A stretch of 64,000 nucleotides of DNA from Escherichia coli (GCF_003334765.1 NZ_QOWT01000002.1), one strand, 5' to 3'; counted from the first letter of the stretch, positions 11,499-26,343 are shown. Notes: generated from the sequence alone by a model not told the origin. A program made the numbers and translations.

Positions 11499-11753
11499 AT
11501 GGCTAGAGATGATCCGCACTTTAACTTCCGTATGCCTTTGGAAGTAAGAGAAAAATTGAAATTAAGAGCCGAGGCTAACGGAAGGTCAATGAACTCTGAG
11601 TTATTACAAATCGTTCAGGATGCACTATCAAAACCATCACCGATTACAGGATATCGCGACGAAGCTGAACGCTTGGCTGATCAGCAGGCTGAGCAGTTCA
11701 AGGCTATAGTGTTTGAGACACTTAAAAAGATTTATGAAAAGGATTTGAAATGA
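11499..11753 (+). CDS. mnt: Mnt repressor (ribbon-helix-helix)
   Basis: MARDDPHFNFRMP.EVREKLK.RAEANGRSMNSELLQIVQDALSKPSP matches P22 Mnt. Confidence 0.9.
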   Translation: MARDDPHFNFRMPLEVREKLKLRAEANGRSMNSELLQIVQDALSKPSPITGYRDEAERLADQQAEQFKAIVFETLKKIYEKDLK

Positions 11754-12085
11754 GATTTCTATCACTGTTCTTGTTAGCAGTTGTCTCTTCTTCCAGTGCT
11801 GAGCTGCGCGAGCTTCAAACGGGTAATGACCTTCTTTACAACATTCAACAAGGTAAAAAGGGTGATGATTTTTCATCGCTTTACATTACTGGATATTTGC
11901 GCGGAGTAACTGACTCATTGATACTAATTGGTTCTCTATGTCCTCCTGATGGCGTTGACATGTATCAATACACCGATATCGTTGAGAAATATCTAAACAA
12001 AAACCCAGAATCAAGAAATGAGAGTGCAGTTATACTAACCGCCCTAGCAGTAGGAAAAACATTTCCGTGCAAAAAGAATCAATAA
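11750..12085 (+). CDS. Small secreted protein (signal peptide, two Cys), unknown function; cargo gene at P22 sieA position
   Basis: MRFLSLFLLAVVSSSSA signal peptide; start overlaps mnt stop (ATGA). Confidence 0.6.
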   Translation: MRFLSLFLLAVVSSSSAELRELQTGNDLLYNIQQGKKGDDFSSLYITGYLRGVTDSLILIGSLCPPDGVDMYQYTDIVEKYLNKNPESRNESAVILTALAVGKTFPCKKNQ

Positions 12086-12100
12086 CAATAAGGGCTTAAA

Positions 12101-12490
12101 ATGAAATTGATTATAGCAATGGCTTTCCTTGTCTTCTCGTTTTCTGTCTCAGCAGAGTGCTGGGTCGTTGGAGATATGCACGGAATAAGCTATTCAGAAC
12201 GAAATAATTTTCAACCGGAAGAAGATGGTTTTAGTGGAACATTCATCATTAAGACAAACGGTGAAGATGCCAGTATCACATATTCTGGGACGGATGCGGG
12301 CGGCATGGCTTACAAAGCATTGTCTAAAAACTCCATCATTGGAATCGGCGCGAATGGCGAAACTCAACGAGTTATCGACTCATGGGTAATACATCCTAAT
12401 GGAACAGTTTTAATGTCGAAAACCATTTCTGGTTATGGGAATATGGATTCAACCAAAGCTTTTGTTGGAAAAGTAAAAAGAAAATGTTAA
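12101..12490 (+). CDS. Small secreted beta-rich protein, unknown function
   Basis: MKLIIAMAFLVFSFSVSA signal peptide; 15 bp after the previous ORF. Confidence 0.6.
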   Translation: MKLIIAMAFLVFSFSVSAECWVVGDMHGISYSERNNFQPEEDGFSGTFIIKTNGEDASITYSGTDAGGMAYKALSKNSIIGIGANGETQRVIDSWVIHPNGTVLMSKTISGYGNMDSTKAFVGKVKRKC

Positions 12491-12514
12491 CGATTGAATC
12501 CAATTCCCCATACG

Positions 12515-14356
12515 TTACTGCTGTGTTGCCTCAGTAGCAAGCAGCGGCCTGATGGCATTTGCAGCGTTACTCAACGCTCTTTCATAGGCTGGCGTTCCAG
12601 CTTTAGTGTTTGCCAGACGTAAGAGAGCATTCCTTGCTGCTTTGGACTCATACAAACGCATCATTGCACCAAAGCCAGCCTCAAGCCCCATTGATACACC
12701 AAGAGTCGCAGTTGCGCCAATCGTCCTTATCCTGTTGGCTTGTGATTGCCCCGTCTGAGTTACTACATTTGCGGTGTCTGACCTTGCTGTTTGCTGTAGA
12801 ACTTCATGAAGAGCATCAAGCTCTTTCATGTGCTTTCCAGAAAAAATAGTGTTGTAAATTTCACCGCCTGACTGAGATTTCAGCTTATTAACTTCAGTGA
12901 TGAACTTGGCTGGAGAGTCACCGGCCTTTTCCGCTATTTTGCTGACGTAAGCTGCACGCATAGCATCTTTCCCTTTATCATCCAGGGCGCTCCATATTCG
13001 TTTCACGTCAGATGGTTTTCTGCTTAATACAACGGTATTTATAAGTTCAGGACTGGCTTCACTGCTTGCCTTGTTGAGCTTGTTAGCAATGTTTTTATTA
13101 AGCACCTTATTATAAACGTTTGCATAATCAGAATTTGCTTTAAGGTATTTTGCTGCGTCTGATGCACCGAGGTTTTTAGCAACTGCGTTACGAAGGTCTT
13201 TTGACATTGCATTCTCTACCATATTGGTAGCTGCTTTTGCCTGGTTGGGGAAGACCATAGCATCTCCCTGAACATTAGATCTAAATGCTGTTCTGTGCTG
13301 ACGCAAGAGATCAAACGTAACATCCAAATCAGTTGCAGGGTTTGCTAATTCTTCACGTAGGTTACGCAAGGATGTAAGCAGGCTTTGATTGGCAGACGTC
13401 CCAAGCCGTTCCTGTCTTGCGATCGCTGTATTCAGAGCATTCATGGTATTTGTGGTATCAACTGCGGCATTACCCATTTTATTGGTGACGTCATTGATAA
13501 CAGCGCCAGCGGCATCCTTCCGCCCCCTTAACGTGGTGGTAAGAGATTTCACCACATCATCAGGGTTGTACTCACCAAAACGGTCAAAATAATTACTTAC
13601 CAGCTTACTACGCGTTGCATATTGCTCCGCTCGCTTTGAGCCTGTCCCGAGCAAAGCCCCCTCGGCATCCTGAGTTAGGCCGCGAGTGAAAGCATTTTTC
13701 GGCGGGATAACATCAGATGTCATTGGTGTCACGCCCATCGATTCTGATGTGGCAATTTTCTTCGCCACTTCTGGCGCAATATCACCTTTTATAGCCGTTA
13801 TTCCACGCCCTATTCCCTTTGCTGCTGCGGAAAGAACACCCTGAGTGGCAAGGTTAACTCCGGCATTTTTAGCTGCATTTTGTGCGAAATCGCCTTTCTG
13901 ATTTGCGGCCTCTGCCAGTGATCCAATAGCCATGCTTCCTGCCGTTCCAACTCCTGGAACTAAATACCCACCAATTGTTTCACCGGCTTGCGCGTAGGGG
14001 TCTGTCGGTCTGTCTACTGGACGATAAACATCATCCAAAACCTTGGGTCCACCAAGCCCCTGACTGATTGCATTAATCAGACTTGCGCCGCCCTGCAATA
14101 CGTCAAATGGTATGTTTACCAGACCACGACCAGCCTGTTCTGCAATTTGCCCTGCACTTTGACCACCAGTGAGCCAATCGCCAGCTTGTTGCATCAATGA
14201 TGGTTCTTCCCGTGTTGGTGCATTATTGGCCTGATTAACTGTTTGTTGCTGAACAGCCTGACCAGCAAAATACTCATCAATGGCGGTGCCAATATCTTCG
14301 GTGCTCGTACCATCAGGAAAGGTAAATGTCTTACCGTTTGCAGTTACTTTCATCAT
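12515..14356 (-). CDS. Ejection (DNA transfer) protein, P22 gp16-like
   Basis: 613 aa, Ala/Gly/Asn/Thr-rich; position and length correspond to P22 gene 16 (synteny-based). Confidence 0.5.
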
Positions 14357-14622
14357 TCCACCGTAAATTGAATGCCTGATTTTGAGGTATATGATCCAAC
14401 CTGATTCCGTGGTTCTCCTGAAGGTGTCGAATCTTGTGCTGGCGCTGCGTCAGTATTCATTGACATATACCGCTTAACGGCACTCCCCAATGATTCACCT
14501 TTTTTAACATCCAACCCCAATATCTGACCGCCATTACGCGATTGTCCAGGGTTGCCATTCGCGCTCATCCACTCGGCTTTAAACTCATTAAACTGCGCGT
14601 TTCGTCGCTCAAGGTTTGCCAT
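14353..14622 (-). pseudogene. Possible C-terminal fragment of the gp20-like ejection protein gene, out of frame with 14565..15482
   Basis: 89 aa ORF overlapping the upstream ORF by 58 nt in another frame; no SD before its ATG. Confidence 0.35.
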
Positions 14623-15482
14623 TGCATCAAGCCATCTTGCGACCGTCTCAGGGTTTCCATGTTTACTGACAGCTTAGGTGCTTCGCTAATCAACTGCTGA
14701 GCCTTTTCCTGCGCTTGCTGCATCTTAAACCCGAACTCTTGCTGATCCAGAGCCAAGCGTTGTGCTGCGATATTGTGCCCAGTCATTGCTGACTGATAGG
14801 AAAGGTTTTGCCCTCTCGCCTGAAGTGCTTCACCAGCCTGATTGCTGCGGATTGTCTCTGCCAGCCTGCCTCGGTCAATCTCACGACCAGCCATCTTGTC
14901 CTGAACAGCAAACGCCTTTTCTGGTCCAAGCGCACCGAGAGACATAGTAGTCAGCATGTGTGATAGCTGCTCTGGATTCTGGATACCTGTCTGAATCATC
15001 CAGTCAGCATTAGCACCAACGCGATTTAACCTGTCCTTGTTGTCAGTAATGAATTTACTGTAGGCTTCCGGTCCCTGAGAAAGAGCGACGTTAGCCCTCA
15101 TGGCTAAATCGCCCATATCGTTGCGTTGCTGATCATTAAGACCGGAAAACGCCTGTTGTGCCTGTGCAACAAACGCTGGATTTTCCTGGGCAAACTTAAA
15201 TAGTCCCGATGGATCACCAGAAGCCCATGCATCAGCGTGAACCTTATTGAACGCACTAATAGCTTTCTGTTGCTGTTCCTGATTGTAAATATCAGCAACT
15301 CCAGCCAGACCACGTAACGCGGTCAGGCCAACGTTATTTGCACCTGAGCGAGCCAGTTCATTGTTTTCGCGGATCAGACCAAGCGTTGCGTTAATGTCGC
15401 TTGCCTTTGGCGCATTCTCATTTTGCGTACCGATGCCAGCCAGAAAACCACCAGAATTAATACCCTGTTGCCACGTAGCCAT
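14565..15482 (-). CDS. Ejection protein, P22 gp20-like (possibly frameshifted near 14600)
   Basis: 305 aa Q/A/N-rich; between gp7-like and gp16-like genes. Confidence 0.45.
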
Positions 15483-15492
15483 TGATTACCCC

Positions 15493-16188
15493 TTAATAAA
15501 GCAGTGAACCAAGCAGACCGATACCAGCACCGATACCAGCACCCCACGGAGTTGATGAACCAATTAATTTCGCAAGTCCAGCCCCAGCAATAGCACCAGA
15601 CGCACCTCCGCCAATAGCAGATTGCATTGCTGATGGTCTGTTGGCATTTGCCGCTGCAAGAGCCGCACTTTGCTGCGAAATCTGACTCATGTTGTTGGCA
15701 TATGTCTGCCCGGCGTTTGCCTGACCTTGCAGTGCGCCAAGACCAATATTTGCCAGATTCTGGTAGTTGTTCATCTGACCAGATAGCCATTGCTGACCAA
15801 GCGTTGGTGCGATTGTTGCTAACTGATTACCGGTTGCAGTGGAACCCAATCCACCTGTTGCTTCCGCTGCCGCCAGACTCTGATAGCGAGCCTGACCAGC
15901 AAGATCTTTGTACTGCTGAGAGTTGTAATACTGGTTAAGTGCCTGACCTTGCCCTTCCAGAGACGATAAGTTCTCGAGGCTGCCGACATACTTATCAGCC
16001 AGAGGAGTAAACGGCTTCAGGTTGTTCATGATGGTGTTGAACTGCTGATTTTGCAGGTCTGCGGCATACTTCTGAGCTTCTGCTGCATACTTTGCGCTTT
16101 TATCAGAACTGCCACCTTTCCCGCCTTTTTCAGGGCAATAAGGTTCCTCGCCGCGCAGTTTTCTGCCCAGCTTAAATGCATATAACAT
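15493..16188 (-). CDS. Ejection protein, P22 gp7-like (C-terminal 231 codons of the 460-aa ORF)
   Basis: From MLYAFKLGRKLRGEEP... the ORF is Q/N/G/A-rich with a Gly-rich hydrophobic C-terminus; length matches P22 gp7 (about 229 aa). Confidence 0.45.
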   Translation of the reverse strand: MLYAFKLGRKLRGEEPYCPEKGGKGGSSDKSAKYAAEAQKYAADLQNQQFNTIMNNLKPFTPLADKYVGSLENLSSLEGQGQALNQYYNSQQYKDLAGQARYQSLAAAEATGGLGSTATGNQLATIAPTLGQQWLSGQMNNYQNLANIGLGALQGQANAGQTYANNMSQISQQSAALAAANANRPSAMQSAIGGGASGAIAGAGLAKLIGSSTPWGAGIGAGIGLLGSLLY

Positions 16189-16875
16189 GGCTAACGCCGA
16201 GATGCCGTATTGCGCATAGCTCATACAATCAATTTCGCCTTCGCAAAGTACAACCGCCCTCACGCCAGCGTCCAGAGCCTGCCATCCGAACAGACAAGGT
16301 TCGCAATCACCTTCTGCCATAATGACTTTCTTCCCGTCCGGGCGCTCAGTGCTGATTCGCTTGACCTGCAACAACTCACCATCGCGTTTGTACGGAATCA
16401 CCAGAGCATCCAGTTCTCGCTCTCCATTCCACACCTTGCCGCTGACAACCTCGTAGCGCTTTACGATTTCTGGCGATATGCCACGCGATTGCAGGTACTC
16501 AAGATGGGATTCTGTTCTGGTAACGTAGCGGGCGATTTTCTTGCGATCAGGTCTGGAGAATTTCTTCTCACGTCTGGCATCGAAATGGTGATCGTCATCC
16601 TTGATACCGAGAAATGCTTTCGCTTCCTGCATAGCCTGATGCAGGTTAATTCCACGACATGCCATCCACAAATCAAGCATGTCACCGCCGTCTCCCTCAG
16701 CGAAATCAGCCCATTTTTTCTTGCCGCTAAGGTTGACCTTAAGGCTGTTTCCCTTGTCACCGTTGACGTTACCGGCAACCCACTCATGCCCCTCTTTCTT
16801 GCCGTTTGGCAACAGGTGCGGAGCCACCCTGTCAACCTGCGCCCAAAGCAGGTCGCTAAGTTCACTTGGCGTCAT
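16189..16875 (-). pseudogene. Truncated toprim-domain DNA primase (N-terminal 229 codons) fused in frame to the gp7-like gene
   Basis: Degenerate zinc-finger-like WADFAEGDGGDMLDLWM then toprim motif VVLCEGEIDCMS; no downstream DxD motif; directly follows O-like gene. Confidence 0.5.
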
Positions 16876-21084: not shown

Positions 21085-21164
21085 GCATACCAATAACGCT
21101 TCACGAGAGGTGTTTATTCATGAGCGTAAACGCTGATTAATGAACGCAGTTGATAGGATATAAA

Positions 21165-21677
21165 ATGGCATTTATAAAGATTCTTGAATTAATTTCCCTA
21201 AGTGAGATTAATAATGTTGTCAAATATAACCCTATTTCTGGTGAGTTCACATGGCTAAAATCTTATGGAGCAAGAAAGATAGGTGGAACTGCCGGAACAA
21301 TAACAACAAGCGGCTACTTAAGGATTTTCATTAACGGAAGACACTATGCTGCACATAGACTTGCATGGATTATCACTTTCGGTGTTGAGCCTGAAGGTAT
21401 TATCGACCATATAAATGGCATAAAGACAGATAACAGAATTTGCAATCTGAGGCTTGCAACTTACTCACAGAATTCAATGAATAGTAAAATAAATACCCTC
21501 AACAAATCAGGTTGCAAAGGAGTCACATGGAAGAAGGAAAGTAGAAAGTGGGCTGCCTATGGGAAATTAAACGGGAAGAAAAAACATCTAGGGTACTTTA
21601 ATGAATTAGAAGATGCCAAAAAAGCTTACTGCGACTTTGCCAGAAAGCATCACGGCGAATTCTACAGGAGCAAATAA
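21165..21677 (+). CDS. HNH endonuclease with AP2-like DNA-binding domain
   Basis: HINGIKTDNRICNLRLATYSQN HNH motif; C-terminal GVTWKKESRKWAAYGKLNGKKKHLGYFNELEDAKKAY AP2-like; ORF track starts at TTG 21150. Confidence 0.7.
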   Translation: MAFIKILELISLSEINNVVKYNPISGEFTWLKSYGARKIGGTAGTITTSGYLRIFINGRHYAAHRLAWIITFGVEPEGIIDHINGIKTDNRICNLRLATYSQNSMNSKINTLNKSGCKGVTWKKESRKWAAYGKLNGKKKHLGYFNELEDAKKAYCDFARKHHGEFYRSK

Positions 21678-25924: not shown

Positions 25925-25940
25925 TTGCAGGTTCGATTCC
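25925..25940. repeat. Internal partial argW copy TTGCAGGTTCGATTCC (T-arm segment)
   Basis: 16-nt identity with 5601..5616 of argW, located upstream of torI. Confidence 0.6.
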
Positions 25941-26160: not shown

Positions 26161-26232
26161 AATAGCGGGTAAAATATTTCTCACATCTAAAAAACACCAT
26201 TCCAATCAATCCCCTGCCGCTTCAAGTAGATG

Positions 26233-26248
26233 TCTGCAGGGGACACCA
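26233..26248. repeat. attR core: 16-nt direct repeat CTGCAGGGGACACCAT
   Basis: Identical to argW 3' end at 5616..5631. Confidence 0.7.
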
Positions 26249-26343
26249 TCCTTGTGTTTATCCCTAAAACCACATAAAAACCGTAAATTAAATTCGAACT
26301 AGCAGGCCGAATAAGGCACACCAGGAACTCGTGGTTTTATTCA

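Follow-up and report, generated by a model that had tools for sequence, protein, structure and literature searches.

Introduction

Two open reading frames (ORFs) that overlap in different frames may be two genes or the remains of one, and this is the question raised by a pair of ORFs, of 305 and 89 amino acids, within a P22-like prophage of Escherichia coli. The locus lies at 14353..15482 of the 64,000-nucleotide stretch of DNA analyzed here (hereafter the window). The original prediction favored an indel that had disrupted one gp20-like ejection protein gene of an already defective prophage, with two genuine overlapping genes as the alternative. Here we find that a single gp20 gene has lost an internal segment, and that the right end of this deletion coincides, to the nucleotide, with the right end of many other rearrangements in related prophage remnants.

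Two reading frames derived from one gp20 gene

Listing of the ORFs placed both on the minus strand, which the original prediction had not specified, and reproduced the layout that it described: the 305-amino acid ORF occupies 15482..14565 and the 89-amino acid ORF 14622..14353, each starts with ATG, and the two have 58 nucleotides in common (14565..14622) in different frames. As also predicted, no Shine-Dalgarno sequence (GGAGG-like) is present in the 20 nucleotides 5' of the ATG of the 89-amino acid ORF (GGTCGCAAGATGGCTTGATGCA/ATG), and the combined span is shorter than gp20, at 1130 nucleotides vs 1416 nucleotides (471 amino acids) for the intact gene.

Profile searches matched the 305-amino acid ORF to positions 1-277 (E=4e-145) and the 89-amino acid ORF to positions 421-509 (E=1e-27) of PHROG 917, a family described as 'released from the phage upon host infection', and since both match this family neither is a chance ORF. 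An intact E. coli homologue covers positions 1-509 (E=5e-207), and positions 278-420 are covered by neither window ORF. The precomputed Pfam assignment of the gp20 ORF is PF16928 Inj_translocase. Alignment with intact homologues, the check proposed at the outset, showed both ORFs to be parts of one protein: the 305-amino acid ORF consists of gp20 residues 1-276 followed by 29 out-of-frame residues, and the 89-amino acid ORF corresponds to residues 383-471, starting at an internal methionine (Met383). On the minus strand, the 5' part of the gene (nucleotides 1-827, codons 1-276), assigned by identity to an intact reference locus and by PHROG 917, therefore lies at 14656..15482, and the 3' part (nucleotides 1114-1416 including the stop codon), assigned by alignment and PHROG 917, at 14353..14655. 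Comparison of translations places the out-of-frame tail of 29 residues plus stop at 14565..14653 on the same strand; it results from translating the 3' coding sequence of gp20 in an incorrect frame, and an unrelated gp20 variant with a 1-nucleotide frameshift (P0047) ends in the same tail.

The 90%-identity protein cluster of gp20 comprises 1027 members. Twelve of the 15 members listed have 471 amino acids, the others being the query, a 471-amino acid representative and a 282-amino acid partial sequence at a contig end. Many gp20 homologues at NCBI are named 'acyltransferase', which looks like a propagated misannotation of this ejection protein family.

Position and sequence of the deletion

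When window positions 15550..14300 (a 1251-nucleotide query) were compared by megablast with phage genomes and with complete E. coli genomes, full-length matches of 98-99.8% identity were returned, each in two pieces spanning 1537 nucleotides in the subject vs 1251 in the window. Nucleotide identity over the query was 98.4% for phage N7 and 99.8% for a prophage of E. coli OkiPb01694 (WP_000257026.1), in both of which the gene is a single 1416-nucleotide 'DNA transfer protein (gp20)' flanked by gp7 and gp16; the same arrangement, with a 471-amino acid product, is found in hundreds of E. coli prophages.

With the OkiPb01694 locus (L002) as the intact reference, global alignment showed that window positions 15500..14656, including 18 nucleotides 5' of the gene, are identical to L002 4051..4895 (845/845 nucleotides), and that positions 14655..12401 match L002 from 5182 onward at 2253 of 2255 nucleotides, the differences being two substitutions (14241 and 13130) and no indel. 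Global alignment and base-by-base comparison agree that the window lacks the 286 nucleotides in between, gp20 nucleotides 828-1113 (L002 4896..5181), and with them residues 277-371 of the protein. The reading frame shifts because 286 equals 95x3+1.

The comparison with L002 places the junction between 14656 and 14655 (feature 14654..14662, minus strand), where ACATGGA (14662..14656) is followed by AA (14655..14654) and then CCCTGAG; the AA is assignable to either side of the deletion, and the sequence spanning the junction in the deleted form is ACATGGAAACCCTGAG. In the intact gene both ends of the deletion fall within an imperfect direct repeat, ACATGGA(A/T)AA...GAGACGG, of which the left copy reads ACATGGAAAAAGGCATCGAGACGG, the right copy ACATGGATAACCCTGAGACGG and the window ACATGGAAACCCTGAGACGG. 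The repeat is internal to gp20 and is apparent in both the DNA (L002 4889-4912 and 5174-5194) and the peptide (NMEKGIETA / DMDNPETVA); window positions 14662-14639 are a hybrid of its two copies, the deletion spanning from copy to copy.

We therefore regard it as practically certain that 15482..14353 (minus strand) is a single gp20-type ejection protein gene rendered a pseudogene by a 286-nucleotide internal deletion of nucleotides 828-1113. Translation from the normal start would yield residues 1-276 correctly and then 29 wrong-frame codons up to the stop at 14565, giving the 305-amino acid ORF, while the original frame would stay open 3' of the junction, where the first ATG, that of Met383, would open the 89-amino acid ORF; the latter would have no ribosome-binding site because it never was a gene start. 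The deletion itself probably arose by illegitimate recombination of the imperfect direct repeats, through slipped mispairing or microhomology end joining.

All three ejection proteins are required for DNA delivery by P22, and amber mutants whose gp20 lacks the last 33 or 66 residues give non-functional virions (bioRxiv 10.1101/2023.08.15.553423). The predicted 305-amino acid product is missing the C-terminal region and ends in 29 unrelated residues, and it should have no activity as an ejection protein; because C-terminal loss abolishes the function of P22 gp20, the window gene is read as a pseudogene. The window copy has the profile homology and the position between gp7 and gp16 that mark the gp20 family, and has no uninterrupted ORF of ~471 amino acids covering the whole profile; judged by its sequence, it is a pseudogene of the family and not a functional member.

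Authenticity and age of the deletion

The exact 305-amino acid product occurs in three contigs of a public assembly collection. Two contigs, L003 (ERR271232, 12.9 kb) and L005 (SRR3951470, 11.4 kb), match the window at 100% identity through the junction. A sister copy, L004 (SRR35966875), is 100% identical to the window over 8222 and 4885 nucleotides on the two sides of the deletion, but has the 286 nucleotides in place and encodes a 471-amino acid gp20, together with an identical 460-amino acid ORF in which a primase fragment is fused to gp7 (primase::gp7). The flanks are 286 nucleotides further apart in all 298 complete E. coli genomes covering the query, and the junction was found in one piece in none of 5,426 complete E. 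coli genomes. Since L004 retains the 286 nucleotides and L003 and L005 share the junction, these sequences indicate that the deletion is a genuine and recent event in the prophage lineage, and that it postdates the large deletion that created the primase::gp7 fusion.

This support comes from independent assemblies, and a systematic error common to them, possible in principle, is unlikely because L004 assembles the 286-nucleotide segment without trouble. A collapsed repeat that dropped 286 nucleotides during assembly might be suspected from the location of the deletion ends within a short imperfect repeat, but the repeat, an imperfect match of ~9-10 nucleotides, is much shorter than the k-mers used by assemblers, the identical junction recurs in at least two other sequencing runs within 11-13 kb that match perfectly, and the undeleted form is assembled from yet another run, so that we consider such an artefact very improbable. 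Even less credence attaches to a small indel or a base-count error near 14600-14625, where the overlap of the ORFs had directed attention: that stretch is identical to intact genes, the match of 14655..12401 to the intact relative contains two substitutions and no indel, the 286-nucleotide gap at the junction fully accounts for the change of frame, and a true 1-nucleotide frameshift allele (P0047) looks different. A small indel at 14600-14625 was rejected on the indel-free match. Thus the idea of a lesion that broke one ejection protein gene stands, as PHROG 917 and the alignments show one gene, but the lesion is a 286-nucleotide deletion and not a small indel.

That the two ORFs are genuine, separately translated genes is equally remote. 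Both have an ATG start and both are annotated as genes in some assemblies, but these boundaries recur only in copies of this prophage that are 100% identical, the sister copy L004 has one 471-amino acid gene, the last 29 residues of the longer ORF are wrong-frame gp20 sequence, the shorter ORF has no Shine-Dalgarno sequence, and 95 codons of the family profile (PHROG 917 positions 278-420) are absent. Homologues sharing the two-gene boundaries, which the original prediction had named as the observation that would speak against a disrupted gene, were found only as the clonal L003 and L005 and not among independent homologues. A programmed ribosomal frameshift pair was likewise considered and rejected: homologues are single 471-amino acid ORFs, and the two-frame layout occurs in clonal copies only.

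The defective prophage around gp20

The element is a defective P22-like prophage at argW in the E. coli chromosome, with tRNA-Arg(CCU) (argW) at 5556-5630 and an integrase gene beside it. Directly 3' of gp20 lies an intact gene for a gp16-type ejection protein of 613 amino acids (12515..14356, minus strand; PHROG 770, E=7e-280; Pfam PF26808 Phage_P22_gp16), whose start overlaps the gp20 stop. The 460-amino acid fusion ORF at 15493..16875 (minus strand), resolved by profile search and alignment, joins N-terminal residues 2-228 of a primase/helicase in frame with a complete gp7 (residues 230-458). Homology to the late region begins at window position 16193, 5 nucleotides before the gp7 ATG (16188), and the junction at ~16189-16193 marks a large deletion between the replication region and gp7, from which all lysis, terminase, portal, scaffold, coat and tail-hub genes are missing. 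The prophage was thus already defective, as anticipated, with a primase fragment fused to gp7 and the late operon genes 5' of gp7 gone. The primase::gp7 junction is absent from the 5,426 complete E. coli genomes and present on 10 assembly contigs, some with an intact gp20; the fusion protein has an NCBI entry as an E. coli hypothetical protein (CAM3376988.1).

The gp20 deletion would accordingly have struck an argW prophage remnant whose late operon 5' of gp7 had already been lost, and because this prophage cannot make heads anyway, the loss of gp20 was presumably neutral for phage production, with no phenotypic consequence there. Decay of prophage genes by deletion is ordinary and already known in kind, and the gp20 deletion as such is of little importance. 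Its value lies in a corrected annotation, in which one gp20 pseudogene replaces two hypothetical genes and a primase::gp7 fusion ORF is recognized, and in the ordering of two decay steps within one prophage lineage.

Several further features of the region deserve mention. Partial copies of the argW 3' end (tRNA end 5601-5631) lie at 25925-25940 and 26229-26249, on the far side of the prophage, which suggests two att remnants, from a tandem or composite element or an older remnant at 25.9-26.2 kb. The ORFs beyond the prophage match dsdCXA/emrYK/evgAS in size and are presumably these genes, going by the K-12 map. A gene of the Rap1a/Tai family (type VI secretion immunity protein family, PF18602) is carried as cargo at 11750-12085 (plus strand), between gp16 and the Arc/Mnt immunity region, and is kept in many related remnants. 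In the early-left operon, between cIII and the genes near the repressor, Pfam identifies an HNH_3 + AP2 protein of the homing-endonuclease type (~170 amino acids, 21150-21677, plus strand).

A recurrent breakpoint at gp20 nucleotide 1114

A look-up in the assembly collection showed that the exact 89-amino acid ORF adjoins gp16 in many unrelated contexts, in which gp20 homology starts at gene nucleotide 1114, as it does in the window. The right end of the window deletion (AA/CCCTGAGACGG, where the slash marks the breakpoint; protein /NPETVARW; window 14639-14655, minus strand) is common to at least 13 rearrangements in P22-like prophage remnants (loci L006-L012, L083 and L136-L151), each with a different left partner and the same nucleotide on the right. 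The in-frame context of the breakpoint is GAT AA/CCCTGAGACGG, and the coding stretch around AA/CCCTGAG is GATAACCCTGAGACG. Retrieval by the exact 89-amino acid ORF favors endpoints within ~40 nucleotides of the site, a bias toward this ORF from which a protein search with gp20 residues 312-471 is free; the in-frame fusions recovered by the latter were all joined at /NPETVARW.

Protein search and DNA junctions identified four of the left partners as a lambda-type CII (SQISRW/; P0003/L083/L142, in three complete ETEC genomes), RepO at codon 71 (DRISD/; L143-145), gp7 at codon 23 (EKGG/; L146/147) and a divergent gp20 allele (ESVR/; L150), and the residue 312-471 search returned two further in-frame fusions beside these. 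The remaining left partners are gp20 nucleotide 827 in the window, gp20 nucleotide 421 (L006), a gene-10-like gene (L007), a site upstream of an LprI-like gene (L008), and separate partners in L009, L011, L012, L148 and L151; intergenic DNA is among them. At the 10 junctions for which the undeleted partner is known, microhomology of 2-6 nucleotides is present and always overlaps GATAACC. Across the final 40% of the gene, junctions were observed at only five positions besides nucleotide 1114.

The RepO::gp20C fusion (L143-L145) belongs to the window's own lineage, being 100% identical to it over 8.2 kb on one side and differing by 1 mismatch in 8.3 kb on the other. Because its GATA microhomology needs an intact gp20, the sequences indicate that this fusion is an event independent of the window deletion at the same nucleotide. 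Three complete genomes of porcine ETEC carry the CII::gp20C fusion at the lambda att locus (ybhC-bioA). At that locus, L142 (E. coli ETEC1706, NZ_CP122904) and L136-L141 carry a composite remnant that fuses a left arm of lambda type (int...cII') with a right arm of P22 type (gp20C-gp16-tailspike) and continues with an IntS-type integrase and an O-antigen acyltransferase and, in some copies, with an IS insertion in the tailspike. The contig L150 (SRR18206976) is a heavily scrambled P22-like remnant with a truncated terminase and two portal fragments in opposite orientations, in which a 68-residue piece of the divergent gp20 is joined in frame at the shared breakpoint.

The broken site is rare in wider samples. 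In an unbiased sample the site is intact in 301 of 305 E. coli records, and 119 of 120 IMG/VR loci retrieved with a 32-mer are intact-like just 5' of the junction, the broken one being L083; a scan for the broken-junction pattern (VAACCCTGAG...) likewise returned only L083 from IMG/VR and nothing from JGI metagenomes or GTDB representative genomes. The pattern is one-sided, with a fixed right end and variable left ends: the reciprocal class, with gp20 kept to nucleotide 1113 and foreign DNA to its right, accounted for none of 11 hits in a search of limited sensitivity.

Possible causes of the recurrent breakpoint

A site-specific process acting at gp20 nucleotide 1114 (a break, a nick or a cryptic recombination site), in which this point is repeatedly joined to upstream DNA through microhomology of 2-6 nucleotides and of which the window deletion is one product, is the cause to which we incline, by a little over even chances. 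It is favored by the 13 different left partners joined to exactly this nucleotide, by the independent RepO::gp20C event within the window's own lineage, and by the scarcity of other junction positions, five in the last 40% of the gene. Against it, searches at the site turned up no enzyme, motif, hairpin, Chi site or inverted terminal copy, the argW att core is unlike the breakpoint, the sample was retrieved in part via the exact 89-amino acid ORF, with its preference for endpoints within ~40 nucleotides, and the flanking imperfect repeat alone suffices for the window's deletion.

More tentative, and in our estimate rather short of an even chance, is the broader proposal that the gp20 gene of P22-like prophages contains a nucleotide-precise, one-sided hotspot of illegitimate recombination, at which a site-specific break, nick or cryptic recombinase site repeatedly deletes upstream DNA, from 0.3 to more than 20 kb. 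The part of this proposal under which the deletions keep gp16, the immunity/exclusion genes, the tailspike, an O-antigen-modifying gene and int is held with the same reserve. A site-specific break or nick, acting together with selection that favors remnants retaining the right prophage arm, could underlie the recurrent endpoint. If the hotspot proposal is true, it would describe a recurrent, possibly selected, route to domesticated remnants, with the 286-nucleotide deletion as one small product; if the endpoint is site-specific, an unrecognized mechanism would be shaping P22-like prophage decay and gene survival in E. coli. A literature search found no report of a hotspot at gp20 nucleotide 1114.

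Searches for a structural or sequence determinant at the breakpoint were negative. There is no inverted repeat of at least 7 nucleotides that could form a hairpin or cruciform there, the DNA fold z-score being -0.5; neither GCTGGTGG nor CCACCAGC, indicative of a Chi-protected end, occurs anywhere in L002; no consensus match to an internal promoter lies nearby; and no second copy of AACCCTGAGACGGTCGC, as expected of a transposon-like end, was found in the window when both strands were scanned with up to 3 mismatches allowed. Deletion adjacent to a transposon or IS end was rejected, there being no terminal inverted repeat or IS, and ordinary gp20/gp16 coding DNA to the right of the breakpoint. 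Integrase-promoted deletion at a secondary att site was also rejected, as CCTG is all that the argW att core (TTGCAGGTTCGATTCCTGCAGGGGACACCA) and the junction have in common. The predicted cut of a Type IIS enzyme (CGTCTC N1/N5) at the adjacent GAGACG falls at the junction; Type IIS cleavage is unsupported, as the other GAGACG in the gene (nucleotide 838) is without a matching fusion class. Among dif/XerCD, hix/gix, Ter, phiX/RCR nick sites and IS ends, we know of none convincingly similar to the breakpoint.

Comparison with known systems

The ejection (E) proteins gp7, gp20 and gp16 of P22 build a trans-envelope DNA conduit. The window copy belongs to the same family as P22 gp20 by profile (PF16928, PHROG 917) and keeps the gp7-gp20-gp16 order, and the 471 amino acids of P22 gp20 equal the length of the intact E. 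coli allele (bioRxiv 10.1101/2023.08.15.553423). In contrast to P22 gp20, the window copy is without residues 277-371 and is frameshifted, so that neither ORF is a full member of the family. No solved structure homologous to gp20 by sequence was found. The closest intact counterparts are ORF12 of Escherichia phage N7 (Lederbergvirus, MH717096), a 'DNA transfer protein gp20', and the E. coli prophage protein WP_000257026.1, both encoded by uninterrupted genes of 1416 nucleotides where the window has a 286-nucleotide gap.

In the 'adjacent deletions' promoted by Int or by transposons, one end is fixed and the other variable. The gp20 junctions are alike in that one end is fixed to the nucleotide and the many variable ends all lie on one side, but their fixed end lacks an att-like core, a terminal inverted repeat, a transposase and an IS. 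The resemblance is one of pattern only, and membership of the gp20 breakpoint in this class is not supported.

Cryptic lambdoid prophages that decay by deletion are exemplified by CPS-53 at argW in E. coli K-12. The window element resembles such remnants in its integration site, argW followed by an integrase gene, in its large internal deletions and pseudogenes, and in the retention of conversion and immunity genes. The window remnant, which in its present form was found in none of the 5,426 complete E. coli genomes, differs from CPS-53 in being P22-like and in keeping gp7-gp20-gp16, the immI region, the tailspike and the early region.
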